From: Mesotaenium endlicherianum
Taxonomy: Eukaryota
Assembly (NCBI GenBank): GCA_009602735.1
Contig: WELA01002665.1
Coordinates: 1-57,597, forward strand
DNA: 57,597 bases
Direction of reading: 5' to 3'
Of the stretch, positions 1 to 37,426 are shown piece after piece. The position numbers were made by a program, and so were the translations under genes. The first letter of the stretch is position 1. The number at the start of each line of letters is the position of its first letter. A model generated the notes under the pieces. The model made no database searches, was not told the origin of the DNA, and was given only the letters and a program-made list of their open reading frames with translations.

Positions 1-943
1 ATTCTGTCCTCCTTCTGGTTCCAGCTTTTGACGAACTCCATTGCATTCAGCAACTTGCATCCTTCTGGAAGCCTCTTTCTTTCCTTCATTTGCCATCCAC
101 ACAGGACAAGAGGAAGAGCACTGGTGGGTGCCAAGTTAGTTTGCCCATCACTGGCTCCTCTCACTTTAACTGTACCTCTGCTCCAACACACTTCAGCTTG
201 ATGTCTATTAAGCCAGGACCTGCCTAGCACGAGATCATAAAAGCCAGTGTTGAGTACCTCAAATGTAAGCGTTTCAGTTAGAACTGCAATGCCAGAACCT
301 AACTGGACCTCAATAGGCTTGGTTATAACTCCTCCCGGGATACTTGAGGCATCTCCAAGGAATATTTTTCTATTCCCTTGGGTGACAGTAGGCAGCCTTA
401 GCCGCTTAACTAAGTCCTTGTGGATAAAAGTATGTGACGCCCCTCCGTCAACAAATGCCCTCACCTTCCTACCTGCAATCATGCAATGCAGTAGGATAGG
501 GGGGACTGTCTTTTCCTGACTTTCGCATTGTTCTCCTGACGTAGCAAAGAAATGTTGGACATCAGGTGGAACAAGAGCATCCAGAGTGTGCACTCTCTGG
601 ACGTCTATATTGCTGATGGTCTCCTTTATCTGGTTGTCAGGCATGCATAGTGAATCCAGTTCAGCAGGACCCATAATACCTGCTACGAGGGCAGCTAGTG
701 ACGACTCACTATCTCTAGCATCCTCACAGTCAGTAGACTGGATTACTGACTGTTGCTGTCTTTTAAAGGCTGGTCTTTTCTCTCGACCTTAGGCAGGTGC
801 TTGACTGGACACTGTTCTCTGTAGTGGCCTTTCTGCTGACAATGGTAGCAAGTAGATTTTGCTGAGGCTGGTCTCGGCTTAGTCCTACCACCACCCTTTC
901 CATAGCCACCTTGAGAGGAACCACCTCTACCTCTAGACTGTAT
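1..943 (-). mobile_element. Internal fragment (gag 3' end with CCHC knuckle, frameshift site, protease) of an inverted copy of the same gypsy family as 1644-10039; runs off the window edge
   Basis: Reverse complement aligns by eye to ~3186-4138. It encodes CYHCQQKGHYREQC and FVDGGA, with scattered substitutions relative to the + copy. Confidence 0.92.
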
Positions 944-952
944 AGAATTGAT

Positions 953-1643
953 AGCAAGTAATCTTTATGGTATTTTCCATTTACTGGTTAAACGGCAAAG
1001 GACAACACACTAGCAGTGAATAATACTCGTACGTCAAATGCGAGTAAACTAGCATCAATAATGCAAATTAGTAAACTCGTACATAAGCAAGGTTAGAAGA
1101 CAGTGCGTATCAATGGCTTCTCGCCTTGGATTCAGATCTCTCTCAGTAAGCTGTACAAGAGAGTTGGCCTCGTTTCCGAATGCCGAACTCGAGAGCAATG
1201 CCTAGCATATGTACATGGAATGAGTTTACTGTTCAACGGTCAGTGCGATGGCACCGCCTACCCGGGAGTTAACCACGTTGGTAGGACCTCGGTTAACCAA
1301 ATCCACCGCCATCTCCCATCATCCCGAATAGCCATCCATCATAGGGATGTCATCTGGCCATTCATCTAGCATATCGTGCTTAGGTGTATGTCAAGGCAGT
1401 TCGCTGCTACCGAGTACGGAAGTCAGCTGGCTGTCAAAGAATGGGTCAGCAAGCTGACTTATATGGACTTCAGCCTGTTGCTTCCGGCTGAGTCATTAAA
1501 CTGATAACTATGTAAAGTCCAGCAAACTGACTATTAACTAAAGTCCAGCAGACTGGCTATTAACTAAAGTTCAGCAGGCTGAACTTAATTAACTATTTAT
1601 ATTTAAATGAATATCATATCCACTAATATACTGATTCATTACA
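953..1643 (-). repeat. LTR of the inverted copy, 3'-truncated and fused through a 9-nt filler to the end of gag
   Basis: Reverse complement starts TGTAATGAATCAGTATATT, as at 9321, and follows that LTR up to ...AAAGATTACTTGCT. Confidence 0.9.
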
Positions 1644-1870
1644 GCGAGAAGCCATTGATATGCACTGTCTTCTAACCTTGCTTATGTATGAGTTTACTGA
1701 TTGCATTATTGATGCTAGTTTACTTGCATTTGATTTCCGAGTGTCGTTCACTGCTAGTGTGTTGTCCTTTTGCCGTTTAATCAGTTAACGGAAAATCCAT
1801 AAAGATTACTTGCTGATATAAAGATCTTTATTAATTGTTAATCGCCTATTCGGTAAGTCGATTCATTTCA
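1644..1870 (+). repeat. 3' part of the 5' LTR
   Basis: Nearly identical to 9813-10039; ends TTCATTTCA directly before the PBS. Confidence 0.93.
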
Positions 1871-1871
1871 G

Positions 1872-1883
1872 CGGTATCGGAGC
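1872..1883 (+). promoter_or_regulatory. Primer-binding site, tRNA-iMet type
   Basis: CGGTATCGGAGC 1 nt after the LTR end; canonical is TGGTATCAGAGC. Confidence 0.85.
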
Positions 1884-1904
1884 AGTTATCACAGTTTTCT
1901 TTGT

Positions 1905-3394
1905 ATGGTAAGGACAAGGTCTCAAACTAGCAACTCCCGAGACATGGAGAACCAGGATAACGAGAATGTTGAAAACGAGGCGGAAAGCCATGTAGCGGGA
2001 ACCCGTACCTATTCTGAAGCAGTGGCAGATATTGCAGCTAGAGAGGCTGCAGATAAGGCAGCTGCTATTGCCGCAGTCGCAGCACAGCAAGCTGAGAAGG
2101 AGAGAGCGAGATTAGAAGCTGAACAATTAGCAAAGGCCGTTGAAGATACAGAAAGGAGGGAAGGACAGCCAGCTGACGAGCGCACTGTTGAAGAACTTAT
2201 GGCATCAAGGGCCAACGTTCTGAACCCACCTCCTGCTGTACAACTCAATGTACCCCTAGGTCAAATACGTGACCGGCTGAATGCGGCAGGAAATGCTGCT
2301 GCAGGAGCGAGAGGGGCTGTTGAGGACACTACTCAGCGAGTAGATGCTAATGTTGCTGCTGCGTTTGCTAGACTACCACCCCAGAGTATAGGCTTGGGAG
2401 CATTGTTTGTTCAAATGCAGTCGCAAATGGCGACCATGTATCAGTCCCAACAGGAGGACACAAGAATCATAATGTCTCTACAGCGGGACAGAGACCAAAA
2501 ACTGGGGTCTCAAACCACTGGTGGTGGTGGCCGAGGGCCTAGTAAGCCCAAGCCGAAACCTCCCCAGGAATATGATCCTGAGGGAAACAGGAAATATTAC
2601 CTGATCAAGTTTCTCGCGGATGTTGAGCAGTGGCTAGAGAACTACCCAATACTGCAAGATCACGAGAAGGTCAGGCACACCGGTGCGCTACTGAAAGGCA
2701 GTGCCGCAGACTGGTGGCTTTACTGGAAAGGAGAGCGTAAGGCTCGGCAACTCGATGACCCTACGTGGGTAGAGTTTGTCAAGAAGTTGCATGAGAAGTT
2801 TGATGTCATCAACCAGCAGGAGAAAGCTATCTATGCGATGATCTCCCTGACACTGAAGCAGACCACTTCAGTTGCTGAGTTTGCTCAAAAGTTCCAGGAG
2901 AACATGATGAAGCAGCCAGACTTGCCAGAACGGTATAGGATAGCATACTTCAGGTATGGCTTGAAATCCTAAGTCTCTGCTCATTTCGCTGAGAAGAAGT
3001 ATGAGAAACTGGCTGACTTGATCCAGGATGCTGATGCCTGGGATCAGCAGCAATTCAATCACAAGCGCCAGAGTAATGCTTTGGTGTCTAAGATTGTCAA
3101 AAAGCCCCACGGTTCCTACAACGCCATTGAAGGAGACCAGGCTGAGGATGATCAGGGTGATGGATATGAGTATGAGTATAATGCCATACAGTCTAGAGGT
3201 AGAGGTGGTTNNNNNNNNNNNCTCGAGGCGGCTATGGAAGAGGTGGTGGTAGGACTAAGCCGAGACCAGCCTTAGCAAAATCGATTCGCTTCCATTGCCA
3301 GCAGCCAGGTCACTTCAGAGAGCAGTGTCCAGTCAAGCACCTCCCAAAGGTCGAGAGAAAAGACCAGCCTTTAAAAGACAGCAACAGTCAGTAA
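1905..3394 (+). pseudogene. gag: Gag (coiled-coil N-terminus, capsid, RGG, degenerate CCHC)
   Basis: LLKGSAADWW...WVEF...SVAEFAQKF...YFRYGLK capsid motifs. Premature TAA at 2970-2972 with the frame continuing; N gap at 3211-3221; RFHCQQPGHFREQC; stop at 3392-3394. Confidence 0.9.
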
Positions 3395-3411
3395 TCCAGT
3401 CTACTGACTGT
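3370..3411 (+). promoter_or_regulatory. -1 programmed ribosomal frameshift signal
   Basis: T TTA AAA in the gag frame, 7-nt spacer, perfect 10-bp stem ACAGTCAGTA/TACTGACTGT; the -1 frame is pol. Confidence 0.8.
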
Positions 3412-6400
3412 GAGGATGCTAGAGATAGTGAGTCGTCACTAGCTGCCCTCGTAGCAGGTATTATGGGTCCTGCTGAACTGGATTCACTATGCATGCCTGA
3501 CAACCAGATAAAGGAGACCATCAGCAATATAGACATCCAGAGAGTGCACACTCTGGATGCTCTTGTTCCACCTGATGTCCAACATTTCTTTGCTACGTCA
3601 GGAGAACAATGCGAAAGTCAGGAAAAGACAGTCCCCCCTATCGTACTGCATTGCATGATTGCAGGTAGGAAAGTGAGGGCATTTGTTGATGGAGGGGCGT
3701 CACATACCTTTATCTATAAGGACTTACTTAAGCGGCTAAGGCTGCCTACTATCACCCAAGGAAATAGAAAAATAATTCCTTGGATATGCCTCAAGTATCC
3801 CGGGAGGAGTTATAACCAAATCTATTGAGGTCCAGTTAGGTTCTGGCATTGCAGTTCTAACTGAAACGCTTACATTTGAGGTACTCAACACTGGCTTTTA
3901 TGATCTCGTGCTAGGCAGGTCCTGGCTTAACAGACATCAAGCTGAAGTGTGTTGGAGCAGAGGTACAGTTAAAGTGAGAGGAGCCAGTGATGGGCAGACT
4001 GACTTGGCACCCACCAGTGCTCTTCCTCTTGTCCTGTGTGGATGGCAAATGAAGGAAAAGAAGAGGCTTCCAGAAGGATGCAAGTTGCTGAATGCAATGG
4101 AGTTCGTCAAAAGCTGGAACCAGAAGGAAGACAGAATGTTCTGTCTGCTGCTAAGAGAGGTACCTCCTCAACCTGAAGAAGTGGTTGAGAAAAAGGTAAG
4201 CCCTCCGGAGCACCCTACTGCTGCAAAAATTGTTGCTCAGTACACGGATGTATTTAATATGCCTCCAGGACTACCCCCTAAGAGGGAAGTAGATCATAGG
4301 ATTGATCTATTACCTGGGAGTCAGCCACCTTGGCAACGCACGTATGGCTTGTCTTATGTGGAGAGCGAGGAGTTGAAAACACAGATTGCAGAGCTTGAGG
4401 AAAATGGTTATATTTCTCCCAGTAAATCACCTTATGGCGCACCCATCCTATTTGTTAAGAAAAAGGATGGCAGTATGCGGATGTGTGTGGATTACAAAGC
4501 CCTGAACAGAATTACGGTAAAGAGCAAGTATGCTTTACCCAGAATCGAGGACTTGCTTCATACCCTGTCTGGTGCTAAGGTGTTCAGTAAGATGGATCTG
4601 AAGAGTGGTTATCATCAAATCAGAATTGCTGAGGGGGATGAACACAAGACTGCCTTCCGCACACGTTATGGACACTATGAGTTCAACGTGATGCCATTTG
4701 GACTGACTAATGCTCCTGCCACCTTCATGGGTGCTATGAATGACATTTTCAGACTTTATTTGGATAAGTTTGTGCAAGTTTTCCTGGATGATATTTTAAT
4801 TTTCTCTAAAGATGAAGCTCAGCACACTGAACACTTAAAGTTTGTCCTGGACAATCTAAGGAAAAATCACTTATATGCTAAAATGAGCAAGTGTGATTTC
4901 TTTAAGGAAAGTATTGAATTCTTAGGCCACGTTGTCAGTAANNNNNNNNNNNNNNNNNNNNNNNNNNNNNNNNNNNNNNNNNNNNNNNNNNNNNNNNNCG
5001 GGACTGGCCAGTACCACAGTNNNNNNNNNNNNNNNNNNNNNNNNNNNNNNNNNNNNNNNNNNNNNNNNNNNNNNNNNNNNNNNNNNNNNNNNNNNNNNNN
5101 NNNNNNNNNNNNNNNNNNNNNNNNNNNNNNNNNNNNNNNTGACTGACCTTACTAAGAAAGACATAGGGTATGTGTGGGGGAAAGAGCAGCAGGCTGCCTT
5201 CCAGACCCTTAAAGATGCCCTTTGTTCTGCCCCAGTTCTAACCGTGTATGACCCCAGCAAACCCGTGCAGGTGGTCACTGATGCCTCTGACTTTGCCATG
5301 GGTGCTACATTGTTGCAGCCTGCTGACAAGACCACAAAGGATGGTAAGGTACGGCAGGAATGGCACCCTGTGTTGTACGAGTCTATGAAATTTAATCTAG
5401 CAGAGATTAATTACTCAGTGCATGATAAAGAGCTGCTAGCTATCATTCATGTGCTCAAACAATGGAGAGCATACTTACATGGTAAAGCCTTTAAGGTGAT
5501 TACAGATCATCTAGCTCTGACCCACTTTCAGAAGAAGTCCAAGCTGTCGAGGAGGGAGAACCGCTGGAGCCAGATGCTGGAGCAGTTCCAAGTCCANATG
5601 CTGGAGCAGTTCCTAGTCCAGATTGACTACAAACCAGGGAAGTTGAATCCTGCTGATGCACTCTCTAGAAGACCTGACTTGCAAAAAAGGGACTGTAGTC
5701 AACATGCTGTAGATAAAGTCCTTTGTGCACTCACTTCACTAAAGGTGAAAAAGTCCTTCCTTGAACAACTTAGGAAAGCCTACCTTTCTGACCCAACATT
5801 TGAGCCCAGCCCCACTACTGGTGTGTGTCGTGCTACTGCACTCGGATATACGCTTAAGGCAGGGGTCTGGGTGACTGAAACCACTTCAGGCAGGCTGAAG
5901 CTGGTCATTCCTAATAACTTGGAAATAAGGTCTCTCTTACTGAGTCAAGCACATGACAGTATCCTGGGTGGACATTTGGGGCAGGCAAAAATTGTTGGCA
6001 AACTGGCAAACCATTATCATTGGGAGGGGTTGCCCCGGGAGGTCTTGAAATATGTAAAGTCCTGTGACCAGTGTCAGAGAAATAAGTGTTGACACACACC
6101 ACCCGGAGGTCTCTTGCAACCACTGCCCATCCCAGCTCGACGCTGGGAAACTATATCCATGGACTGGGTGGTCTCACTACCAAGAACTGCCAATGGGCAT
6201 GATTCAATACTGGTAGTCGTGGATAAACTGACAAAAATGGTCATTTTTATTCCCACAACTGTCAAAGTGACTGCACTCGAAACAGCAAGACAGTTCTACA
6301 ACCACGTAGTATGCCAACATGGGCTCCCTTCTAATATCATCTCAGACAGAGCCTCAAAATTCACCTCTAAGTTCTGGAGAGCTTTAATGGGGTTAATGGA

Positions 6401-7254
6401 AGTCAAACAGCTGCTCAGCACAGCAAACCACCCTCAGACTGATGGGCAGACTGAAAGAACTAACCGAGTTTCGCAGGAGGTGCTGAGAGCATATATTAAC
6501 CAAAAACAAGATAATTGGGATGACCTGTTGCCTCAAATTCAGTTTGCGGTCAACAGTGCGGTGCACGCGTCAACGGGCAAGACTCCTTTTGAACTCAGCC
6601 TGGGTAGAGTCCCTAAGTCTCCTTTAGATGTACTGGGGGAGTCTTTAACTGACCCTGAAGGCCTTGACAACCCAGTCTCCCTCCAGTTAACTCAGGAATT
6701 TGCTGACACCCTGTCAGAAGTCCAACAAAACTTGCACAAAGCCCAAGAAAACCAACAAAAATACGCTAATCGACAACGTCGGGAGCTGACATTTTCTAAG
6801 GGCGATTTAGTCAAACTGCATTCTCAGAACCTGTACCTCCCTGGTGTGGTCAAGAAAAAGCTTGGCCCTGTTTGGGTCGGTTCATATTCGGTAGTGCGTC
6901 GTGTCAGTCAGAATGCTTACAAATTGAAAATGTCAGCTAACTACAAGGGTCACCCGGTCTTTAATGTCTCCTTCCTGGAACCATACATCAAAGGTGATAC
7001 ACTGTTCACAGGTCGGTTACTTGTCCAACCGGCACCGGTCCCTGCTGTCCGGGACGGCGACCCTGAGGAATATGAGGTCGATGAGAATTAGACGCTCGCT
7101 CGGTCCGTCGTCGTCTAAATATGTCATGAAGTACCTCATCCGATGGAAGGGTTACGATGCCTCTGGGGACACGTGGGAGTTTAAAGACCAGCTGACCAAT
7201 GCCAAAGGGGCGTTGAAACGGTTCCACCTTCGGGCGGCTGGGGCACCGCCCTAA
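3370..7254 (+). pseudogene. pol: Pol: protease, RT, RNase H, integrase, chromodomain
   Basis: [80 protein letters not shown]. Several frameshifts, stops and N gaps. Confidence 0.95.
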
Positions 7255-7578
7255 CTGTCCATTCAGTAGACATGGGAAGGTGACAGGAGGTCCTGTCTCC
7301 ATATAAGTAGAGGGGGATGTGACAGTTAGTGACAGTTGTGACAGGCAGCCCACCTTTAAAATTAAGTTGGAGGGAGTGGTATTCTCTGATCACCATAGAA
7401 CTCACTCAACCTGCGCTCACACTCACTTGCTCTCTAACTCCAATTTTCCCTTATATTCACTCACACCAGGTATTCCACACTAGGAACTCTCCCGATCGCG
7501 TTCCTCTTCATCAAGGGCACTCAGTAGCGGCAAAATATCATAACTTCACTAACTGCATTGTGTTTATGATTGAGCAGG

Positions 7579-9278
7579 ATGACTCAAAAGTCAGAGCTCA
7601 AGAGGAAGAGAAGGGCGGAAGAGGCACATGCAAAATACTTGCAATTCTGTGGAGACATCGAATCATCCTCCATCTCCGCTCGGAAATCACAACGACTCCA
7701 ACAACAGCGGGAGGCACAGAAGAAGAAGGAGGAGGAGGAACAGGCTAGACTGAGGCAGGAAGAAATGGACTGAAAAGCTGCAGAGGAGGCCAAGAAAGCA
7801 GAGGAGGAGAGGCAAGCCGAGGAGAAGCGGAAGCAGCAGGCTGAAGAAGAGGAACAGAGGAGAATCAGCAGCTACCGCTACACAGTGCTGGGCAAGGGCT
7901 TTGATCTACTGGAGGAGGCCTTCAAGTATGCCCAGAGAAGTCGCAGTGAGTCGCAGATTGAAATCCTCCAGAGGGAAGGGGAGACATCCAAAAACTTTGA
8001 CAAGTATATAGAGGTCAGCACGGGGCTCCTCCTCTACCACGATTACGCCAGGATGGTAGGATTATGGTCAGAGAGGCCAAGGCAATGGCCCAGGTGAACG
8101 AAGCAGGGGCTGTCTCGATTCCTGGTATCTGGGGGGAAGATAGGGTCATCAGGATGATCCCCATGGACGCGGACAGCTTCAAGGACTCAACACCCCATAA
8201 CAGGTTCAAGGCCATGTATAATGAGGTGGAGAGAAGGAGCTGGGAATTCTTGGCTAGGAAAACCAGTCAGCTGGACTTTGCAGGGCACTGGTACCCTTGT
8301 ACTCTTAAAAGGACAGACCCTGCCTTCTTCCAAAAGCCCACCGATTGGCGGTGGATGACCATCAACATGAGGGACCAGCAGAATGACAGGGCGACGGATG
8401 AGGATTTCCTGACAGACCTAAAGGGGAACATAGTATTGCCCCCTCACATTGCGGCTTGGGACCCAAGATTGGATGGAGTCAGAGACTGCATGAGCCAAGA
8501 GATGCAGGGGGACAGAAGCAGGGCCCGAGAGTCATTCTCAAAAGGGAAGCACGCTTATGCCAAATGGGCAAGTAAGCAGGGGGAAAAGGACCTCTATGCG
8601 GTCCGAACTCAGCAGCCCCCACCAGCACCCAAAAGGGGAAGGTTAGTAGGATATTCCTTTTCTTGGGAAGAGCTGGAGCAGCTGACAGAGGAGACCCCAG
8701 AAGTCTCTGAGGAACCCGGGGACGGAGAGGAGGAGGAGTCAGAGGAAGACGAGGAGGAAGGCAAGGAGGAGGACACTAGCCCCGCCGTGATCCTGACACG
8801 TGCCACATCCCCTGTAAGGGAGAAGACGGGGTTGGCCCTGCAGCAACTCGCTGAAGAGGAGGATATCACTTGGCTGGGAAATGCCAGAGGACAGAGCCCA
8901 GCTGCAGGCACGGAGACCCAGTCAGACAGGGCAGACAGGAGGGCTGCTCGGGAGATAGCCAGAGGCCTGCCAGCATCTCCCTCGCAGAGAGGGCATGTAC
9001 CCTTGGCTCATGTCATGCAACATCCTTTTGGGATGCCGGTATATGTACCTGTTAGTTTGCGGGCTGCCCAGGAGAAGGCTGCCTCCCTTCAATTTCAAAC
9101 TGTGCAGGAGGAAACAGCCCAGTTACTCGCTCTCCGCGGGGCCCCTACGCGGATCCCCCAGGCTTTAGGAGACCCCAAGACAGGAGGAGGTCGGACTCCC
9201 CTGAGTATAGGGCCTCAGGGACATCTCCCTCCTAATGGCAGTAGGCTGGGGACGGAAGGGACAGCACGCTGTTATTAG
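7579..9278 (+). pseudogene. Third ORF of the retrotransposon; unknown soluble protein (basic NLS-like start, charged coiled coil, Trp-rich core, acidic tract)
   Basis: ORFs 7570-7773 and 7885-8097 share a frame across one TGA; one frameshift near 8060 leads into the 404-aa ORF. It lies between pol and the PPT/3' LTR. Confidence 0.75.
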
Positions 9279-9305
9279 TGTTAATGTTGTCGAGGCCACA
9301 ACATG

Positions 9306-9319
9306 TTAAGTTGGAGGGA
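9306..9319 (+). promoter_or_regulatory. Polypurine tract region
   Basis: TTAAGTTGGAGGGA immediately before the TG of the 3' LTR. Confidence 0.75.
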
Positions 9320-9320
9320 T

Positions 9321-10039
9321 TGTAATGAATCAGTATATTGGTTGACATAATATACATTCAAATATAACAATTAAATATGTTCAGCCTGCTGAACTCTAGT
9401 TAATAATCAGTCTGCTGGACTTTATATTTAATATCAGTTTAATGACTCAGCCGAAAGCAACAGGCTGAAGTCAGCTTAAGTCAGCTTGCTGACACATTCT
9501 TTGACAGCCAGCTGACTTTCGTACTCGGTAGCAGCGAACTGCCTCAATATGCATCTAAGTGTGGTATGCTAGATGAATGGCCAGATGACATCCCTATGAT
9601 GGATGGCGATTCGGGATGATGGGAGATGGCGGTGGATTTGGTTAACCGAGGTTCTACCAACGTGGTTAACTCCCGGGTAGGCGGTGCCATCGCACTGGCG
9701 GTTGAACAATAGACTCATTCCATGTACATATGCTAGGCATTGCTCTCGAGTCGGTATTCGGAAACAAGGCCAACTCTCTTGTACAGCTTACTGAGAGAGA
9801 TTTGAATCCAAGGCGAGAAGCCATTGATACGCACTGTCTTCTAACCTTGCTTATGTATGAGTTTACTGATTGCATTATTGATGCTAGTTTACTTGCATTT
9901 GATTTACAAGTGTTGTTCACTGCTAGTGTGTTGTCCTTTTGCCGTTTAGCCAGTTAACGGAAAATCCATAAAGATTACTTGCTGATATAAAGATCTTTAT
10001 TAATTGTTAATTGCCTATTTGGTAAGTCGATTCATTTCA
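9321..10039 (+). repeat. 3' LTR (719 bp)
   Basis: TGTAATGAATC...GATTCATTTCA terminal inverted repeat; matches 1644-1870 and, inverted, 953-1643. Confidence 0.95.
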
Positions 10040-11293
10040 GACACGTACCACAGGCATATTTCATGTTAATCTGTGAGGTCTCCACAGATAGATAGCACAC
10101 ATATCATACAAACGAAGGATGTCAGAACCTGCGTGCGGAGCGAGTTGAGATTGAAGAAAAGGCGAGGCGAGGCGAGGCGAGGCAAGGTGCTTGATTTCCC
10201 CGGTAGCTTGGGGGGCTTGGGGTGGCTGGGTGGCTGAACCATGTCACGTGTCAGAGCCAGTGCTGACTCCCGACAACTCCAGGCGCATTCAGCATAAGGT
10301 TCAGGGTGGGAGCTCCTTGGGTTCAGGGCTGAAGTATGCTCTCTGGCTCAAGGGTTGACTTGGCCAGGTGGTCTGACAGGAGGCTCGTGCGCGGGGACCC
10401 CAACAATGGCACTGACGCTAAGTTGTTGGCATTCTCTGAGGTGCTCACGTGCCTGGGTCGTAGCAGCAAGGCACAGTTGTGTTCTCACTCACCGTCCATC
10501 TCGCTCCCACGTGCGCGTGCAGGCCTGCCGCCCGTGCGTCTAAAGTCACCTGTCGTAGAGCTCGGTCATCTACATGCTACACGTGCGGCTTGTGTCAAGA
10601 GCGTCTCAAGAATGCTACCACGTGAGCTGTTGAGCGGCACATGACTCAGCGTCAGGGCGCGGGTCTACCTGGCCAGCTGCAGGAGGGTGGGAGGCGCTGG
10701 TGGTGGAGGGGGTGGAGGAGGAGGAGGAGGAGAGTCTGGAGGCGTGGGCGCGCTGCCCCTAGCTGCCGGCTGAGCGCAGGCGTGCCGCCTACCGGCGCAA
10801 CTTCATGCGGTGCGTGTTTCCTCCCGCCCCTACGCGCGCATGCCTGCATGCGTTCGTGCCGGGCAGCGCAGTGGCAAGTCCTTGGAAGCGTGCAGACAAC
10901 TGCACCCATGGGCTTTCATTCCATTGAGAATTTAAGTGGAGGAGGGGCGTGCAAGGGCGGAGGGGGGGGGGTTCAGCATTTGGGGGTTGGGGGTTAGGGG
11001 GCAGGAAGGGCACCAGAAGATACTATGAGGCTTTGCTGGCAGCTTGTGATGCAATGATGCTCCCACCTGGGCGAGCAACGTGCACTCTCTTGCCCTTGCT
11101 GGCCCCAGCCTGGACTGCAGCAGCTGCCAGCCAGCTGCAGGATCTGAGCATTCTGGTAGAGCTCAATTTGCAGCGGCGAGACACCTTCTCACACGCTCGA
11201 GCGCTGAAAGTGAAACAAGCTAGTGAAACTGGTCAGCGTTCATCACATGCTGCGCGTGTCTTGTCACCACTTCCACTCACTCCCTCCCTCCAC

Positions 11294-14466: not shown

Positions 14467-16853
14467 CACTCTAGATTTTCTTAGCACCCCCCTGAAATTA
14501 TTATGACATGAAAGTAATTTGACCGGGCAAAAAGACCCTTTCCGAGTCAACGCAGTCGGAATTCACTACTCAACATCTTAAAACGTCATTTCCGCTGATT
14601 TAGACGAACCTTAATTGTGTGAAGTGTTGACGTTCACAAACTCGCTTGGGCCGGTAATTGCCTATTATTTGACAAAATGGGTCCACTGACATAATCGTCG
14701 AGGGTCTGCTTCACATGTGCCGTTCCTTCATCGAAGCACTGTTGTGAACAATGCGTCAAGTGATCCCTTCATTAAAGCTTAGACGACCACAACGGGTCGA
14801 GCTCCCGCATTGATTCGTTGATAACGGAACTCTCAAGCCCGCTTCGACCAACAAGAGCCTCAATTTTTCCTTCATAACTACTGCATGCTTTCTTGCAGCA
14901 TCTATTTTCTCACGCAGCCAGTCATCTACAATTCTCACCCATTTTTATCAGCACAGGTCCCTGTAGCCGAGTATGCCTTTCACTACAGAGTAGCTTAATC
15001 ACCGCTTTACAGATGATGTTATTGCCATTTGTTTACATCCTACGTTGTCTTTCCTTTGCTCTCCTTCTCTACCAACCTCATTCCATGAACGGAAATACGA
15101 GAAAACGTCATGTGGATAAGAAAGCAGCGTACTTTTGTTCCCATCCTTTACCTGATGAAAGCATGTGTTCATTCTCCCTGAAGCCCAATTACAATGACAG
15201 ACTACTGGACCATCACAATGCTCAAATCCATGGCATTTTCCATTTCTGTATGTTCATGGGTTGCACATCTAGATACACAAACCGGTTCAATCTTGCATTC
15301 CACCAGGTCCAATCACGGTGAGTTTATTGCTCCATACCCATGCTATAGAGTGAAGATTGTTCTCTCCCTTTCCAACGTTTTTATTACTTTACCTGGTGGG
15401 ATGAATTGCTCCGATGTAACTCCTTCTGCACCCCATGCTCTTTATACTAACTTCTGAATTGTATTATTTTCAGGCAACAAGGTGTTGGCTTCCACTCACA
15501 CCAATATTGCAATGCCTCTCACTAGTACCTGTTCACTGACTTCCTGTTATTGACCCCTGTGTATATATCTTATACCCGTCTCTTTGCTACTTTGCGTTTT
15601 GGATACTACAAATATGATATCTATTTTTCTATCATTTCATTTTTCATCTTCGCCATATAACTACTGCTAGTTCGTGAGCTCACTTCTCACCAGTCCTCTC
15701 CACTTCCTGTCTTTCTGTTGTAGGAAATCCACTTCAAGAGAGTCAACCAATTCTCAAGTCTGCCACTACTTTAGTACAGGCAACATCTACGAATTATGAT
15801 GGTCCAACTGGTCTTGTTTCTGAGTCCAATCATCTGCTGCAGCTACAAGGTTGACTTCTTAATCAAATTACCAAATAGCTTATATTGTGGACACATTCAT
15901 TCTCGTTGTTTTCCAAGCCTTACCCTCTTGGATCTACTGTAATTCATTCCATACGGTTGTCTTCCCTTTTGTTTAAAATATTGCCTTTCGTCCATGAATA
16001 CTGTTTGACTTATTGTTCACGAAGCTTTGCGTCCTCCTCCGCATACTGCGAAAGTCACATAACTGGAAGCAGGCTACCTTCTCCCTTGCCGTATAGCAGG
16101 CGTCTGCCCCTTTGTGTCCTCTATTCATTGCTCTCTCCCTTGGACTAATTTGTCCGCTCTTTCTCTTCCATCGAACTTGCTCCCTCCTTCTCTCTCGCTG
16201 CTTCTTTCTTTATAACTATCACGTTCCCTTCTTTGTTTCCTTGAAGCTGTCTTACTCTGTGTTTACACTTATACATCTTGGTTTGTGGAACCTATGTGTT
16301 CAGGTGCAGTGCGTGAAACAGGGCAGCCTGCCAGTGCTTTTGCAAGTCCAACAACCATGCGGCTTGGAAGTGCTGCACTCTTGAATCAAAGGGCGCCCAT
16401 TATTGTACAAAATATTGACCAATATGAAAGTATGTTCTGTTCCAATATCGTTCATGTGCTCTCACATTTCCACTGAAATTCTTCTTGCCTGCCTGTTTCA
16501 TGTGTACGCTAGTTTTTATTCCATTTACTATGTGCGTCTTACTGTTGTTTGCACATATGCCCAGTACATCTTCATGTTCATAATTCTCAGGATGTTCTTG
16601 AATTTACTACTTTATACGTCTTTTGTCATTTTTTTTTGCCTCTGTTGCTGCTTTGTTATTTGCACTTACATATTACAAAACTCAGTGTTCTCCCTTGCCT
16701 CTTCCATCAACGTCATCCAATGCCCCTTAACCCTTCCCCCCTACTGGTTTCCCCCCTTCATGTATCGCTATTCTTTTGGGCATGGTCTCCTTTTTGTCAG
16801 TACTGGTTTTCACTCAATTGTCTCATTCTTCGTTTCATGCTCCATTTATGTAG

Positions 16854-17872
16854 CTCCCCTCGGTAGTTCGTCGTCTACCTCTTCACGGCAACAGAGGAGA
16901 AGAAAGGCTGCAAAGAGGCGTCGTGCTGTCATCAACTCCATCAGTTCTCTTTCTGATTCCTCGTCACATTTGGGTGTACCCTTATGTGAACCATTGCATG
17001 CCTCTGTACCTCTCCAGAACCCCTCTCCATGCCCTCCTCTATATACGTATCCTGCTCTACATAATGGTATTATTTCGTCTTCCTCACTTGGTACATCTCC
17101 CTCTAGTCACTCTACCCCATCTTTACTTACGACTGACCTCTCCTCTCCAGAACATTCTAATCCAAAATCCCCTTTGTCTTCACCCTGCATGTCGCCAGTA
17201 TTTAATGCTTACCATTCAGACCATGAAACTCGTCACCACACATACTCTGAATGTTGTACCCCATCTGGCTCTCCGAATGGTGGCACTCAGTCAGGAGACT
17301 CTGAGGATTTTGAGACTTTCGTGGACAACGTTAATCGCTCTCGAACACGTCCTGTAATGTCAAACACCACCTTTGGTGACCCTCTTGTCAGACCATACGG
17401 GCGCCTGAGGTCCTTCACATTTGCTGTTGTGTTTGCACACTACATGTTGGTTTCTCCAGATGCCCAAAGAATTAGCAGGGAACTCATAGCTGAGATTCTA
17501 AGCCACCAAAAGTTTTCTGTGAAAGACTTCTTGAGACAACCACGCACAGATTTGAGAAATTAAAGAAACAACTTGGTGAGGTTGGTGTGAAGCAATTTGT
17601 CATGCCGGATGGTGAAATTCCATACTATAGAAGCATAGTTGACACTCTTACTTCATGTCTTTCTGATCCTCGTTACACCGATCACATCCATTGGAAACCA
17701 GAATACACGCGCGGGGGGTTAGTAACCGGTATTTACAATGCACCTTTTGTTACTGACGATCATGATGACGATTTTTTCAAAGAGTATAAAGCTAGTTTCA
17801 GGACTTCTGGAGGTGCGGACCTCACTCTTCATCTTGGAGATAACGTTGTTTTCCATGAGACGACGTCGAATG
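16854..17872 (+). pseudogene. N-terminal exon of a CMC-type transposase, truncated before the catalytic core
   Basis: YGRLRSFTFA and GLVTGIYNAPFVTDD match YGKLRNFSFA and GVVTGVHNAPFVTDD of the transposase near 57500-57130; TAG/GT boundaries; stop and frameshift near 17561-17587. Confidence 0.75.
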
Positions 17873-18314: not shown

Positions 18315-19121
18315 TACCCTCCGTCCTCACCCTAACTGTGCTCTGATCATGTGGCCTTTTCTTTCCCCTTTATGTATGTTACTCAGAGACCTCCATGTGG
18401 TAAGAGTTGATTATTTTGTTGCAGGGCACGTGAGAGGTGGCCATTTTGGGTTACTACACAGCAAACGCTGCTGCATCTTTGAACCTGGTGTGGCCATTGT
18501 ACGGGTGTATGGTTGTGGAGGAAGCAACATAGCATATGCTTTGCAATTGTCAGCAGGTAGGTGTGTTTTTGTGGTCATTGTGTTTTGTGCTAAGATTGTT
18601 TTCCGGCATGTAGCTTGGTATGAGTAAAATAATCATTTAGCTTCTAACTCTACGTCTATTTGGCCACCTTTATGCGTGCCTTCCTGCTCTTTGTGTAGGT
18701 GTGTAGGTGTGCTCGTTTGCACGTGCAACAATGTAATGTGAATGTGTGTCTGTCAATCTGTAAGTGTGTCGTTTGCGCATCTGGGGGTTGGAGGAGGTTG
18801 CTACTTAGGCTGACCTGGCGTCCTATAAAGTGGCGGCTTGCCTGCCTGTTGGCCTAGTAATTGAAAATTTCTTCCCAAGGCTATGAGCATGCATGCAGTA
18901 TTTGAGGCCAAGGCGCATGCGTGTGTTGCAAGCAAGTTTGTGATTAGGCAGAACTAGCGCCCTCATATGTGCATGCCCCGCACCTTGCTCCAACACGGGT
19001 GTGCTCGCGCACCTACAGGGTGCTGTGTCCAACCCCACAGGCCGCATAGCAGACTTACGAGGGGGGAGGCGCGTGTGTGCGTGCGTGCGCGTGGCGGGGG
19101 GGGGGGCGGCAAGGGGCGCAG

Positions 19122-19892
19122 GTGCATGGCAGACTGCGGGTGGATCGCGGGGCACTCGTACATGGTGTACAGCTCGCTGCTCAACGGGGGCGCGCAGGTG
19201 GTGCTTGAGGGCGTGCCTAGCTTCCCCGGCTGGGGGCACACCTGCCAGGTGGCGGAGGTGCACCAGGTGTCCATCTTGTACACAGCGCCCACCACCTTCC
19301 GCGCGCAGATGCGCACCGACGACGACGTGCGTCTGACCCTCTCCCTCCCTCTTGCCCCCTTCATGGTCCATTGTGCGTGCTTGCGTGCATGGGCTTATCC
19401 CATTAGCAGGAAAGGGGGGGGGGGGGGGGGGGGGNGGGGGGGGGCAGCGGGGGGTTGGATGACTGCTTCTCTGCTCGTGAGTAAGAGAAGGCGCCCTTCT
19501 CTTACACTCTGCATGTGCGTGCATGTGTGCTGTGTGCGAGTGTGCTGTGCGTCAGCATCCTGGGGTACGTGTCTGTGTAGCAAAAGCCACGGGAGAGGAG
19601 CACGCTTGCCCTCACAGTGCACGCCATCCACTCGCGCGTTGCCTGCATGCCACCGCCAGCCAACCACGACTTGTACGCGGGCTTTTTTCAGCTAGTGGGC
19701 CTGTCCCGCGCCCTCTCCTACTCCCAGTATCAGCAGCAAAGGTGTGTTCATTTTGGTTCTGTGGGCGCGGGGCTGGTGGCAGGGGGGGCAAGGGGGTGGG
19801 CGGCATTGGGCAGTGCGTGATGAGGTATACTTGCAGAAGTCGCTGCGTGCGCTGGGCTGCGTGGGAGAGCCCATCAACCCCCCAGCCTGGAG
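19122..19892 (+). pseudogene. ACS: Acetyl-CoA synthetase fragment, two exons (19122-19326, 19814-19892)
   Basis: CMADCGWIAGHSY..LLNG..EGVP..ILYTAPT and KSLRALGCVGEPINPPAWR are AcsA signature segments; CAG/GT splice sites; frameshift in exon 2. Confidence 0.9.
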
Positions 19893-21640: not shown

Positions 21641-22358
21641 GACTGTATAGTCGACAAACATATAACAATAAAGGCAGAAGCGAGGAGTTGGGAGAAATAG
21701 GCCCGGGAGGGAATGGGAGCAAAGGTGAAGAAGGGCTTGTACACAAATAAAAAGATGTGCCAGCTAAAACACACAACCGAGCAGGCTGTAGGCAGCTCAC
21801 TTGGGATCATGAGATCTGACAAGTGTAGCAAGCCTTGCATAATTTATGAACATGATAAAACTAAGGGAAAGAGTATATGGAGGAATGCATATAAAGACAT
21901 TCAGCCCCATCATGCAAGGTCAAGGTCAAAGAGCACCCCACAAAACAAGATGCAATATGCACCCACATACTTAACTCTCACCAAGAGCACACGCACAAGA
22001 GGTAGCAGGCGTCAGGCACAAAACGGGGCACTTGATTGAGGCGGAACCTGACGGACGCACGTAAATGTTCAAACAATTGCGTATTGAAGTGAGCAACTGT
22101 CTCCGAGGCGGTATAAGACTGTAAAGAGCACGTAAGTGTTAGTACGATGAGGTATACGACGTGTCGATACGACAGCCGAGGATTACGTACGTGAGGTACA
22201 AGTGTTTAACATGGACATTGAACATTGAGAGGATAACGAGTGCAGCATGAGAATGACGAACAGTGGTCAAAAGCGGCGCATAAATGGCTACCCTGGAGTA
22301 GTCACCATCATCGTTAGTTACACAGTGAAGGTCTTTTTAAGTATAATATTGTGCACTT

Positions 22359-25190
22359 ATGGAAGACTCTACGTCGAAAGGGGCTTCTGAAGAGAGAAGC
22401 GAGAGTTCAAATGGAGGAAGTTTAGCCAAACGTGCAGATGGGGAAGGAACCTGTGTTGAAGGGAGAAATAGGTCCATCAGAACTAGGCAGCCTAGTGCTA
22501 AGGTGAGGGAATCGCAAATGGCTGAGGATGACGGAATGCAGGATGTTTTGAAAGGTGTGCAAGGGTCATTAGTAATCTCTAAGGAAGAAAAAGCACAAGC
22601 AAAAAAGCAAGAAATTCTTGTGGAGAACTACGTAGCACGGGTTGAAGTGAAGAGTAGAAACAGGGTAGAAAGAGTAGGCCAGAAAGTGAAATCTATCAGT
22701 GCAGTCGATAACGCTGCACAAACTGTCGTTGCTCCTGTAGGTGGCCCACCTGCTACATGTAAGCCTTTGTCAGTAGCTCAGAGAGCTTCTTTGGAAGCAG
22801 CTAAGGATGGTGCAAAAGAGGGAGTAAAAGAAGGTATGTCGGAGTTTTTTATGGGACATGACAACTTTAAACAATTCCATGACATACCTTTGACCATTCT
22901 GCAGGCAGTGGCTGTGAATGTTGAGAGGCTGGTGAGGAAATCACGGGTAGGTATTGAGGGATATAATGGGGAGAACGATACTTATGCTACAGATATTTTG
23001 GACAAGGGCATGGAAGACTTGAAAAGGAAAAGCGAGGCGCTATTAGAGCGAGAGACACAGTTTGTAGATGTAGTGGAACTATTGAAAGAGGCGACGGAGA
23101 AGTGGGACAACATTGAGGAATCACTCAAGCGCGTGAAAGCAACTTTGGCGACTGGGGTAGAAGGAAGGCGCGTCAACCACCGAAGGAAGTGAAGAAGGAA
23201 GATGACCCTTTGGAGGTATTGTGTATTTTCCTCATGCTGCAGTTGTGACTTTGTTTAGTGGTTTGCAATTTATGGTCATGTAAGCTAAGGGGTTGCCAGT
23301 TCTTGCATTTATTTTGTACAACACTTGCATTAGCAGACTTAGACGTTAAATATGGCAGTATTATTAATGCAAGTACAACATGCACAATTGTGCAGTGATC
23401 GCAAACCTACCCCACATGTTGCTGTTGAATGCCAGGCGTGTCTTATTGAACACCCACTGGTAGTGCAAAACACGTGGTGTATGTTGTATGAGGGCGTACA
23501 ATTCTGTTTTGCAGCTCAAGTGCACCAGAGAGGTATGGGAGGAGAAAAGAGCGAAGGTCATTGTTGGCCTTTTCAACAGAAGCGAGTATGCAAAGCAGCT
23601 CATGTGGATGGATGTATTGGCCAAAATGAAGGTGCATGAGCATGAAGAGATGATGCATGGCGCCTCCGACTTGGCTAAGAAGCTTTTGGAAATGCAAGAG
23701 GATGAAATTGTGAACGAGACAATATTGAACCCCATGAAGAAGGTAAGGGACCTCTACTACAGCAAGTTCAATTTGGCATGTTGCATACATCCTGCTTCTC
23801 AAAGAGTGCTATTTGTGTGCATAGCAAGTAGTTCCTGTTCATGTTGGGAAGTGAAGACCTGGTTTACTCTGTATATGTATTGTGGTCTGTCGGTAAGGTT
23901 CTTGTTGTAATGCAGGTGTGAAATACTTGCATAAATCCGAATTAATGAACAATAATGTGTGTGCATAAATCAAGTGAAGCCAGCAATGCAACTACTTGGT
24001 CTTCCTCTCAACAAGTTTAGAGTATATTCAGTAGTGTTCCAAATGCTGAGTACGCCTATGTTGGAGTGCAGTAAATGGGGTGTTTATGGATCCAGAGCAA
24101 TGGCGACTTCAACAAGTACATCACCCTGGATCGCACCTTGAGGGGGAACAAGATTGAGGATAGTTATTGAGGTGAGGACGGTACACTTGCATTGGAACAT
24201 GCAACAGTCATTGCCAAGCGGGTCTTGAATACTCGCTTTCCTTGGAAAGAATGGTACAAAACTGCACCTAAAGGGAAGGAGAGAATTGCACTGGAGATTG
24301 AGGGCGTGAAATATGTCGTGGCTTACTACAAGGACAAGCAGGTGAGTAGTTGTGTGCATTTTGATAGCAGCAGTATAATATCATAGAAATAATGTAAGAT
24401 GGATTATTTGTTTGCAAGTACATGGTTGAGTGACGCTCATATTGGCATTTTGAAACATGTCTTGCAGGGCAAGCTGGATGCCCTTGCTCCTGTGCCTCTA
24501 ACGGACGTTGCGGTGCCCAGGAATGGTGCGGTCAACAGTATTGCATCACGAGGAGGTAAGTCATGCTGTGAAAAGTGGAAGTCCACAAAGAGGTAGAATG
24601 GCTGTTGACAAGCATTGAGGGTGTATGGTTGGAAGTTAGCGTTGGTCTGGTCAAAGAATGTGCCACTTGGCGTATATTTGTTGGCATTTGACAGAGTGCA
24701 AATATTGCTGTGAGGACCTGTTGTGGTGCTGCCGTGGTGCATTGCATGCCATGGTATTGGGGCGGGGGGGTTCAAAGAGCTTTTTATGATGCATACATGT
24801 TCAAGAGGGCTGTGGTTGATAGTGATGTAAGTACTAAGGTGTCTACTTGTCGTCTCAAATACATTTCTTGTGGTCTGGTTTTGAATATAGGGTCTTGGTG
24901 TGCTGTGGCCGATAGTGGGCATGCCTGGCATTGGGACGGGGGCTACAGAGTGATTATTATGATGCACACAAGCAGGGGTTATTTGGGTACTCGTGATTTT
25001 GGCCTGTCAACGAATGCTGTGCGATGATTGCCGTTGTTGCCGCACGCATTACCTGACTAATTTGTTTTGTTTGTGACAGAGACAATGGCAAGTGAAAGCA
25101 ACATGTGGGCACAATCAACAAGTGGATTGGGAATAGCAAGTGAGGGAGGGTTGAGAAAGAAGATGAAGAAGTTACATAGACATGAGTGAT
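22359..25190 (+). pseudogene. Unknown multi-exon transposon accessory gene (low-complexity N-terminus, coiled coil)
   Basis: 277-aa ORF, then coding-like exons ending at GT donors (~23742, ~24341, ~24556). Lies inside the TIRs. 3' limit approximate. Confidence 0.55.
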
Positions 25191-26065: not shown

Positions 26066-27950
26066 GTGGTTGAGGCTCCGTGTTGGGGGGCACCGCAGGG
26101 GATGGAGACGATCTGGGCAGAGAGGCTGGAGGGTGAGTTGGCTAGGCAGCCGGTGTTGCTGGCTCAGCCTTGGGGGCGCCTGGCACAAGTCACTCCAGCT
26201 TGGGTGTGGCCGACAAGTGGCCCTCCAGCAAGCGAGGGAGGTAACCTGCCAAGTGGACATTTTGTGGCACGTGGCACTCGACAGGAAGTGCGAACGGCTC
26301 CCCCGCTGACGCGTGGGCGGCAGGTGGCAGCTCTTCAGCTGGGGTGTGGGTGACAGGTGGCACTCCAGCAAGAAAGGAAGGTGGCCCGCCAACTGGACTT
26401 TTAGTGGCAGGTGGCGCTCCGAGAGGAAGTGTGGGCGGCTCCACAATTGACGTGTGGGTGACAGGTGGCAGTCCGACAGGAAGTGCGGGCAGCTCTCCAG
26501 CTGGGATGCGGGTGACAGGTTGCGTTGCTGCATGGGAGACAGGTGGCACTCCCGCAGGGAAGGCAGGTGGTGCTGCAGCGGGGGTAGTTGCACCACGTGG
26601 CACTCCGGAGGGTCTGTATGTGACAGGTGACGGAACCCCAAGCGTAGCAGGGTTGTCGGAAGCAGGTGCCGACGATCCAAGAAGACTTGGGCTGCCAGGC
26701 CCTCCCGGGGTGGCCTGGGTGGGCGACTCTCCAACCGGCAGCACGGGGGGGTTGCTTTACGGCGTAGCGGGCGGCAGAGGGGCGGCTCTGGTTGGTGGGC
26801 TGCTGCTGCTGCCGCTGCTCCTGCCGCTGCTGCTCCTCCGCAATAGGGAGAAGGGGAGGAGGGAATTGCGCTGCTATCTGTCCCTCATCTGCTGGAGGCG
26901 GTGTTGATACGGCCTCCGGCAAGTCCCCTGGAGGAGGAGGAGCTGCGAGGAGCATGAGGGAGAAAAAAAGGGGAATGAGAAAAGAGATGACAAAGGAAGA
27001 GAAATGGACTAGCTTTCTCCCAGTCATGGCTGCCGGCTGCTTCTTGCCATCCTGAGCACGCAAGACATTCAAAGTGCAAACACTTGCAAAGACGCACTAT
27101 CGGGATTTGAGCGGGGTGGATCGCAGACCAGATGATGAGGGCCCCGCATGTACATTTTCTATCACGTTCACGCCTACCAGCAGCACAGCATCACTGGGAG
27201 AGCCGTAGGATAAAATAGCCAATCTGTTCAGGCCCCAGGGTACGGACAAAATTGGTGCCAAACTTCTCTTTTGCGAGAGCTTTAAGATAATCGGGGCAAA
27301 CAATGCACCTGAAGGAGGAGTGGGCGGCGCTTGCAGAACGACAGCGGCGGGACAATGAGCCCGTCCACGCCCCGCATGGAGATCCGGCCGTCCAAGTCCA
27401 CGTCAGGGTTTACGGCCCTCACAAGCCCTGGCAAGGCCTGCAGCAGGCGCCTCCTTGAAGGGGACACGGTGAAGAAGGCCGTGGCGGCGTCGAGGTTGAA
27501 GAAGAGCCCGCCGTCGACGACAGATGTCAGGACAAAGTTCCCCAATACCGTCTCCAGCTTGCTAATGGCGCCCATCAGGTCCGCAAACGTGTAGTACTTT
27601 GGGATGGCAAGCTGCTGACGTGGATGCTCCGCCAGGCGACGAGTTGGGTGAGGCACTTGGGGGCCCTGCTGATCTCAAAGGTAGGAGGGACAGCAGTGGT
27701 GGAGGAGGCAAAAGAACGCCGCAGTTCCCCCATGGCGCGAGCACTGGCGATAGGGAAACGTGCGGGAGGGTGAGGAGTCGGGGGAAGGTGGCAGCACGTG
27801 CGATAAAAGTGATGCAGGTGTGAAGAACGGTGTGAAGAACCTGCAGGCGGAGGCCCCTACCCAAGCAATGGATGGTGATGTAGGTGGCGGAGGCAGTACA
27901 GAGCCTGGGGTTTCAGCAGCTGGCGCAGAAGAGAGGAAGAGGAAAGACAA
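26066..27950 (-). pseudogene. 5' part of the unknown Pro-rich gene, with ~20-aa GVPPVTH-type repeats
   Basis: Overlapping ORFs 27282-27656, 26401-27072 and 26190-26744; repeated GTGACAGGTGGCA motif; continues in frame at 14466. Confidence 0.5.
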
Positions 27951-32163: not shown

Positions 32164-33057
32164 TAACAACCTTGGCGAGCGCGCATCGCCGGTGGAGCAA
32201 GTAGAGGTGTATGATCCCCTTGCTCATGTATAGAGCAGACCCCAATTGCTCAAGTGGAGGAGCTCCTAGAAAGTGAGCTCAAGAGAAGCCCGCTTGCAAG
32301 ACGACGTGTGTGCGTGCACAAGATGAGGTGCAAGCACTAAGAGTATGTGCGTATGCCCAAGTTATGGAGCTCTTGGAGGCGTTCCAGATGTGTTTCTTGG
32401 AGCCTTGTGTGAAGGCTGACCTTCAAGAAGAGCCAGAGGTATGTGGGAGTGAGCATCTAGCCAAGGAGAAGACTATGATGGAGTTTGGTGCACCACGAGC
32501 GAGACTACGCGCTCATGTGTAGTGATTTGAGTCATAATATATTAGTTGGCATATATTTTAATGTTTTCAAATATATTTGGAGTAGTATTGTGTGGAGTCA
32601 AGTGTGAATAGGTACTCTAGTAACTTGGTTCATGTCCTTTGAACCTTCTAAGGCATTTTCGAAGTTAGAGGAAAGACCTAGAAGAACTCCATGTGGCAAA
32701 AGTCAAATGTGCCTTTTTTAGGTCAAAAGGACATGTGTACATTATTCTAGAAAGAGGTGGCAAGTTTTGGGATGTGTTGGGTGCCAACACATCAACATAC
32801 ACCTTCCTAGAAATTACTTATGTAGCAAGTATATAAACAAGAGCTAGAACATAGAAAGACATTCCAGAATCACTCTTGTACTTGCCAAAATCCAGAAATA
32901 TATTAACTTTCAAGAAGCCATCTCTCTTTCAAGAAGCTACCACTTGTGTTCAAAGATCCTTGTCTTGAATAGATAAAGTATTCTGTTTTACTAAGTACTT
33001 TATCTATCTGTTTCACTACAGTGGTATCGGAGCTAGGCACTTTGGTAGCACAAGAAG

Positions 33058-34338: not shown

Positions 34339-34352
34339 GCCAGGAGCCTACC
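34317..34352 (+). promoter_or_regulatory. -1 frameshift signal
   Basis: A AAA AAC in the gag frame followed by hairpin GGTAGGC-CAGGA-GCCTACC. Confidence 0.78.
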
Positions 34353-37300: not shown

Positions 37301-37426
37301 GAAAGCTCTACAACACGCGCAAGATGCTCAAGCAAGAGTAACGAACAGATCCAGAAGAGAAATTACGTACAGAGTGGGTGACAACGTGTTACTATCATCC
37401 AAGAATATTTCTCTGAACAACAAGCC
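34317..37426 (+). pseudogene. pol: Pol (PR, RT, RNase H, integrase)
   Basis: LVDSGA, FIDD, TDAS, HHCC, ISMDL, HPQSDGQTER; one in-frame TAG at 36492-36494; truncated before any chromodomain. Confidence 0.95.

Follow-up and report, generated by a model that had tools for sequence, protein, structure and literature searches.

The first part of a 57,597-nucleotide contig of Mesotaenium endlicherianum (GenBank assembly GCA_009602735.1, contig WELA01002665.1; the whole of this stretch is hereafter called the window) contains a decayed Ty3/gypsy retrotransposon with a chromodomain, which carries a third gene in the env position, between pol and the 3′ long terminal repeat (LTR). This third gene exists, is common to many copies of the element, and has evolved under selection, a conclusion that we hold with high confidence. 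A first-pass annotation of the sequence had proposed such a gene, and its presence across the family, its selection, and the lack of a membrane segment in its product were all borne out. The fuller reading, in which a real third gene is expressed by splicing from the LTR and its product has a nuclear regulatory role with the exact target left free, is more tentative, and we judge it slightly more apt to fail than to hold.

The third gene occupies three open pieces of the interval from 7254, where pol ends, to the polypurine tract (PPT): 7579–7773 (closed by a TGA at 7771), 7774–8097, and 8001–9278. The longest frame, of 425 codons, exceeded those of all 1,000 dinucleotide shuffles of 7255–9320 (mean, 138; maximum, 293), and this piece qualifies as a sense additional open reading frame (ORF) of the type eORF-3′F (250 or more codons after pol and before the 3′ LTR on the pol strand). 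Its base use by codon position was gag-like. When a codon model was trained on the window's gag-pol frames, it favored the third-gene frame in most 150-base blocks and switched frame near 8000, where the break lies. The ORF had been annotated as 7579–9278 with one TGA and one frameshift; these frames are as described, but in addition to the break near 8062, a further one probably occurs near 9127. Because of the latter, the third gene should end before 9278 in other copies, and the last 50 or so codons of the 7579–9278 ORF are probably out of frame.

The stretch was present in 20 of the 24 public runs listed, spread over 7 studies and 5 organism labels. The best-matching runs may derive from the window's own source, and no run listed as containing the stretch is recorded as RNA. 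The presence of the third gene is family-wide, in many copies and not as a one-off capture. Run X1 alone yielded 6,815 contigs on 7330–9370. A contig of run X5 (7274–8179) connects the spacer behind pol to the third gene, and a contig of run X6 (8026–9336) connects the core of the gene to the LTR, so the gene is tied to both spacer and LTR in other copies. At the 7771 stop, 201,669 of 201,727 of the X1 depth differed from the window copy, as did X6; at the break near 8062, X5, X6, and 21 X1 contigs differed (about one-quarter of the local depth, plus 10 loose ends), and at that near 9127, X5, X6, and 6–7 X1 contigs. Among the in-frame differences in the third gene, 14 of 27 were silent, compared with 21–29% expected without selection (p = 0.0004–0.009); at sites where only some copies differ, the proportion was 6/8, and the rough omega was 0.25–0.37. 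For comparison, 12 of 28 listed pol differences were silent. The first-pass annotation had named the loss of the ORF from other copies and neutral change between them as grounds for giving up the gene; other copies carry the region, and silent differences are in excess. It had also named an independent nested insertion. Such an insertion in one copy, or a chance open frame, is extremely improbable: the locus does already hold a nested or rearranged sister copy in its 5′ LTR, but in contigs carrying other organism labels, the region meets the spacer and the LTR at identical positions, which largely refutes the insertion, and 0 of the 1,000 shuffles reached the length of the frame.

Two candidate splice acceptors stand just upstream of the third-gene ATG. 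The CACTAAC at 7547–7553 and the CAG at 7575–7577 are placed as annotated; the CAG is followed by one G and then by the ATG at 7579, and the CACTAAC is the sole plus-strand copy in the window. At the other acceptor, 7469, a branch point is accompanied by the strongest pyrimidine run among 47 candidate acceptors identified with a loose rule. When a strict rule was used (CTAAC, at least 10 T in 25 bases, and YAG), the only sites in the element were 7469, 7577, and 1718/9887 in the LTR; that is, two of the three distinct motifs lie just 5′ of the ATG. One strict acceptor occurred in 7 of 2,000 leader shuffles, and two occurred in 1 of 2,000. Furthermore, splicing to 7578 would delete the ATG at 7566, which is out of frame and falls within the predicted intron. 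The acceptor used by the third-gene message is probably that at 7577, perhaps reached through 7469.

The GTATTC directly behind 7469 would permit two arrangements: removal of a long intron in two steps, or a 108-base leader intron in a transcript from an internal promoter. In the second case, the gene would be real but transcribed from the spacer at 7318–7469, with its leader intron at 7470–7577, and the LTR donor would be incidental or would serve LTR transcription. CAG/GTATTC at 7469/7470 is usable as a donor, the short intron would likewise remove the 7566 ATG, donor motifs are common in LTRs, and the extra gene of Grande has its own promoter, although that gene is antisense (PMC7264820). 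Nevertheless, we regard an internal promoter as unlikely, because the branch point and the pyrimidine run at 7469 would be needless for an internal first exon, and no reads with the short intron removed were seen at the near-zero depth available.

In the preferred reading, the message would instead start in the LTR, and a donor in U5 would remove the primer binding site (PBS), gag, and pol, leaving the third-gene ATG as the first. The LTR contains no ATG from 9882 to its end (the last 158 bases), nor between its acceptor motif and the donor; with the 7566 ATG also removed, the third-gene ATG could therefore come first. The GTAAGT copies annotated at 1853–1858 and 10022–10027 are present and are the only two within 1–10100, but the donor had been called perfect, and its context of TCG or TTG before GTAAGT gives no perfect AG/GT. 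With an approximate matrix, the two sites ranked 6th and 3rd of 427 GT sites. Judged from sequence, the acceptor-side evidence is strong, whereas the LTR donor alone is weak evidence; whether the message starts in the LTR and uses the U5 donor could go either way. A donor-like GTAAGG after the gag ATG (1908) would join the third gene in the wrong frame and was rejected for that reason as the origin of its protein.

Three ATGs stand directly before the acceptor motif of the LTR (1672–1718/9841–9887) and none after it, and the LTR may contain its own intron. A possible GC donor, AAG/GCGAGA, occurs at 9813, and the cut in the 5′ LTR falls at the same point.

The predicted third protein contains KRKRR at residues 8–12 and PKRGR further on. 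The 64 residues after KRKRR include 36 E/K/R and 5 large hydrophobics and are predicted to form one long helix; this composition fits a charged single helix better than the coiled coil originally proposed, whereas the KRKRR motif, the Trp/aromatic core, the D/E tract, and the lack of a membrane segment were confirmed. The core has 7 Trp and 21 aromatics in 199 residues, and the acidic tract, with 19 D/E in 30 residues, is followed by a low-complexity tail. No membrane segment of the env-like kind was found in any of the three pieces (highest 19-residue hydropathy, 0.82); cysteines are few, and there is no signal peptide-like segment. The protein is probably soluble and nuclear, although the nuclear site, like the anti-silencing or chaperone role first suggested for it, is read from composition only.

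Searches for relatives of the third protein were negative throughout. In a word-index search, none of 7,995 scored proteins of near length matched the 425 residues, and none of 99 shorter proteins matched the core. HMMER found no relative among 1.84 billion representative proteins; its sole match, P0001, was rejected because it summed eight weak matches over the tandem repeat of an SNF2-type protein. Metagenome and viral contig scans with the core, and also with the integrase, returned no relatives. Pfam gave only composition-type matches below the cut-off for the third gene, with no match to Transposase_28, the plant mobile domain, Athila ORF1, or the Pfam chromatin models at E up to 5. The best match among PDB sequences had an E-value of 0.73, and the ESM Atlas contained no usable match for the core. 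The AlphaFold2 prediction from the single core sequence failed, with a predicted local distance difference test (pLDDT) score of 33, whereas 7774–8061 was predicted as long helices (pLDDT, 69; predicted template modeling score, 0.32).

Because the same splice sites would make the genomic RNA an intron-holding one, the most economical job for the third protein would be to protect or export that RNA; that is, the nuclear protein would help the unspliced RNA of its own element to persist and to leave the nucleus. That it is an adaptor exporting intron-holding genomic RNA, by analogy with CERV and Rev, is doubtful as a specific claim. Anti-silencing and histone binding are close rivals of this role, and the present data do not separate them. 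An anti-silencing factor, or a histone-binding integration helper, could be made by any expression route; the basic import signals, the acidic tract, and the disordered tail fit a chromatin protein, the family is at very high copy number, and nuclear or DNA-binding roles have been proposed for the extra ORFs of Grande and Retand (PMC7264820, PMC11963269). On the other hand, no Pfam chromatin, plant mobile domain, or Transposase_28 model matched, acidic tracts are common in transposon proteins, and the family was near-silent in two poly(A) libraries; we therefore consider this alternative distinctly unlikely. The same low probability applies to the most elaborate form of the preferred reading, in which a probably algal chromovirus would have a complex genome like that of foamy virus or HIV: an LTR donor before the PBS would remove the PBS, gag, and pol to give an unpackageable message, possibly in two steps via a recursive AG/GT at 7469/7470, and the product of this message, a protein of a new family, would determine what becomes of the genomic RNA or lift silencing.

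As for origin, the chromovirus at 39762–45917 in the window has its true PPT at the end of the chromodomain, where PPT-like runs stand after pol in the present element. One of these, 7362–7375, equals the 3′ PPT (9306–9319) over 14/14 bases, and the pair flanks the third-gene segment. The third gene likely entered at the old PPT, which would have stayed behind or might serve as a second priming site.

A number of observations weigh against the reading that combines a third gene, LTR splicing, and a nuclear regulatory role. Two poly(A) runs that share a species label were sampled for RNA, to the extent of about 6% and 12% of their reads, and junctions were listed only with at least three reads. 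Neither a junction of the 1852–7578 type nor one of 7469–7578, the two that had been predicted, was seen, and the depth on the third gene was near zero; none of the 15 joints listed, of 17, on 7330–9370 had RNA support. In contrast, 4 and 7 reads ran unspliced across the donor from the LTR to the PBS, and about 4 reads per run crossed the acceptor region unspliced. Loose ends were listed on 7330–9370 at 8724, 8758, 9321, and 9367 only, with none at 7469 or 7577. GTAAGT occurred in 278 of 2,000 LTR shuffles (14%) and GGTAAGT in 60 of 2,000, and both LTRs of the neighbor element at 39762–45917, in which no third gene is present, contain GTAAGT and GTGAGT. Moreover, the strict acceptor rule was defined after the sequence had been seen, and 170 of 2,000 shuffles passed the loose rule, which 47 sites in the element also satisfied. 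In the third protein, no Arg-rich RNA-binding or export motif was found among those tested, and across the searches above, neither a homolog nor a fold supports any function. The silent-change test rests on 27 of 40 listed differences, of 130 (4 from unrelated reads at 8739–8750, 8 outside the gene, and 1 beyond the 9127 break were dropped), and near-fixed differences were silent in just 8/19. Finally, the summed X1 depth was about 220,000–420,000 over the third gene compared with about 580,000–1,080,000 over pol (about one-third to one-half), and 52 X1 contigs left the stretch at 7308, suggesting that the 3′ region of some pol relatives is different or has diverged further. We considered and dropped the view that these 52 contigs represent copies that lack the third gene; they resemble the window's next bases in sequence and may be a diverged version.

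The lower depth and the departures at 7308, together with the identical 14-base PPT repeat on either side of the segment, also suit a passenger: a segment of host or foreign origin would have been captured at the old PPT and then multiplied along with a successful element, to which it contributes little. We nonetheless consider this quite improbable, given the excess of silent differences between copies, the small number of gap rows listed (just 8 over 2 kb), the location of the frame breaks in the window copy, and the lack of a host-type homolog among the 1.84 billion representatives.

The RNA runs placed 43 and 37 reads on 7330–9370, and 241 and 297 on 5140–10150, chiefly on the LTR and integrase; on the latter span, none of the 15 joints listed, of 170, had RNA support. 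In the body of the third gene, one run had 11 reads from 3 start points near 7990–8022 and the other had about one pair. Reads at 8724–8758 (19 and 6) were rejected as third-gene RNA, because they were loose on both sides and came from another locus. Read direction differed between pol and the third-gene body (no strand control, so that sense was not assigned). Because of the near-zero depth, the junction test had little power; the third gene is nearly silent in both poly(A) samples, and the splice is not disproved.

Over 5980–7800 (integrase, chromodomain, and spacer), the RNA depth reached 11, with nearly all reads in one direction and from diverged copies. Reads on the LTR flipped direction near 9750, and at either end many continued into flanks outside the element (39 and 58 at 10039), which may reflect host read-through into LTRs or a two-way promoter.

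Features of the element and of the sequence joined to its 5′ end, with positions in the window
Feature	Position	Strand	Evidence or remark
Sister-copy gag-end/protease piece, with deletion	1..949	−	95% to 3180–4137 on the opposite strand
Inverted sister-copy LTR	953..1643	−	88% to 9321–9983; stands in for the missing upstream part of the 5′ LTR
5′ LTR remnant, last 227 bases	1644..1870	+	8 differences/227 bases compared with 9813–10039
Acceptor-like motif within LTR (CTAAC, T-rich run, TAG)	1672..1718; 3′ LTR copy 9841..9887	+	Strict motif scan
Candidate splice donor GTAAGT, U5	1853..1858	+	12 bases before the LTR end; sequence only
PBS	1872..1883	+	Same motif behind the LTR, both in RNA reads and in the window's two other elements
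gag	1905..3395, end approximate	+	Ty3_capsid, E 4e−10; stop at 2970
pol (protease, reverse transcriptase, RNase H, integrase, SH3-like part, chromodomain)	3259..7254	+	Pfam; stops and frame breaks
Two extra PPT-like runs directly behind pol	7305..7317 and 7362..7375	+	Sequence
Candidate first acceptor	7434..7475	+	CTAAC at 7434, pyrimidine run, CAG ending at 7469, then donor-like GTATTC at 7470
Candidate second acceptor	7547..7577	+	CACTAAC branch point, T-rich run, CAG ending at 7577
Third gene, first part	7579..8062	+	KRKRR, a long charged helix, and additional helices; the window copy has a stop at 7771
Third gene, second part	8063..9278	+	Trp/aromatic core to about 8690, PKRGR, D/E tract, low-complexity tail
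3′ PPT	9306..9320	+	Abuts the LTR start
3′ LTR, 719 bases, TG…CA	9321..10039	+	Both ends marked by loose ends of reads and contigs

The element has its Pfam domains in the order capsid, protease, reverse transcriptase (RT), RNase H, integrase, SH3-like part, and chromodomain, which includes the order of chromoviruses (gag, protease, RT, RNase H, integrase). The pol matches were RVT_1 (E = 9e−41), RT_RNaseH (5e−33), Integrase_H2C2 (5e−17), and rve (3e−6), and the chromodomain at the end of the integrase, which follows the frame break near 7088, matched Chromo above the cut-off (E = 6e−7). TG…CA ends, a PBS (which we take to be of the initiator-Met tRNA type), and a PPT identify it as an LTR element, although only a remnant of the 5′ LTR is left. 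The integrase contains a stop at 6090, and frame breaks occur in the protease region and near 7088. The gag-pol of the window copy is dead, whereas the chromovirus family is a high-copy one. This decay, and the cutting of the 5′ LTR to 227 bases by an inverted sister copy, had been missed in the first-pass annotation. With gag-pol dead, its 5′ LTR cut, and the inverted sister upstream, the window copy cannot transpose and has probably lost its promoter.

The gag and pol frames overlap, and a TTTAAAA heptamer at 3370–3376 has the right phase for a −1 ribosomal frameshift. In the sister copy, the LTR is joined straight to the end of gag; the LTR end, the PBS, and most of gag are gone, and the join is not of the GT-AG type. 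The inverted sister copy at 1–1643 may be a nested insertion, an inversion, or an assembly error.

Elsewhere in the window, a second Ty3/gypsy element with the same PBS type (33049–37487) ends after its integrase, with no chromodomain or second LTR seen there. The third element, the chromovirus at 39762–45917 that served as a control, has both LTRs (94% alike), its PPT at the chromodomain end, and no third gene. A weak AMP-binding match below the cut-off (E = 8e−7) at 18958–19695 is likely a broken piece of an acyl-CoA synthetase. Open frames of 280–390 codons without a Pfam match above the cut-off occur at 16385–17563, 22347–23192, 47763–48662, and 56401–57354, and degenerate repeats with a spacing of 54–140 bases, open in several frames, occupy 26190–26610.

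The relatives of the integrase showed at most 50% identity; those named among the best 120 were Closterium, Haematococcus, Entomortierella, and one rice. A quick tree of 119 of these 120, in which the third element of the window entered in a wrong reading frame, left the present element on a long, weakly supported branch. The host appears to be algal. The tRNA-type PBS speaks against a typical Tcn1 element, 83% of which are self-priming according to the reference survey (PMC6317226). That survey reports extra ORFs in 3,372 Ty3/gypsy elements of 314 groups, and its Additional file 5 lists extra ORFs of 250 or more codons in all four positions for the Tekay chromoviruses. The earlier statement that chromoviruses encode only gag-pol was therefore too strong. 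The 3′-forward column for Tekay reads 18%, although blank cells may shift the columns of that table. The Tekay extra ORFs share the sense 3′ position and the size class of the third gene described here, but the named integrase relatives of the present element come from green algae and an early-diverging fungus. For Chlamyvir (44 algal elements), Tcn1, Reina, Galadriel, and CRM, the REXdb table lists no extra ORFs, whereas the per-element data may hold algal cases (PMC6317226). Additional ORFs are also named for fungal elements in a figure legend of PMC2864245.

Extra ORFs are common in plant-type LTR elements, and a function is known for almost none of them. Those in sense orientation, including env-like ones, have the position, orientation, and family-wide presence of the third gene, and spliced subgenomic RNA has been reported for Athila and Bagy-2; for Athila, a spliced ORF2 message has been described (PMC7197481). 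However, the carriers of these sense env-position ORFs are non-chromoviruses or copia elements, and some of their products have membrane segments, of which the third protein has none. The Retand sense ORFs likewise lack membrane segments, and a nuclear or DNA-binding role has been proposed for the Retand extra ORFs (PMC11963269). The antisense extra genes of Grande, Retand, and the fungal element Boty also lie after pol and before the 3′ LTR, but on the opposite strand and with their own promoter (PMC7264820); that of Grande has a nuclear product with a proposed regulatory or DNA-binding role. Transposase_28 and plant mobile domains were not found in the third protein. The retroviral and errantiviral env genes share its position and the predicted spliced message, but the third protein has neither a signal peptide-like nor a membrane segment and few cysteines. 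In addition, the candidate donor lies 5′ of the PBS, whereas in most retroviruses the donor follows the PBS, foamy viruses being the exception.

The closest parallel is CERV, encoded by Cer1 of Caenorhabditis elegans, described in PMC10309623 as a 517-residue nuclear protein without homologs, which is translated from a spliced mRNA that includes an env-position exon and is needed for the export of genomic RNA. Like CERV, the third protein is encoded by an env-position ORF without env likeness, has no outside homologs, is of similar size (about 520–560 residues), and has a basic import signal and helical parts; its message is predicted, rather than known, to be spliced. In contrast, Cer1 is not a chromovirus, and cerv shares exons with gag, whereas the message predicted here would contain no gag codons. 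Furthermore, splicing and function have been demonstrated only for CERV. A literature search, with subscription papers mostly outside its coverage, found no account of an algal chromovirus with a third gene that is spliced, in sense orientation, and free of a membrane segment. Both extra ORFs in sense orientation and env-position genes expressed by splicing are already known, and in this respect the third protein is an orphan of a known kind; what is offered here is an orphan gene under selection, in a chromovirus group without extra ORFs in the reference survey, with exact splice coordinates. If the splice and the nuclear role were both true, a retrotransposon would have independently invented a factor like Rev and CERV, or an anti-silencing factor, from a new protein family.

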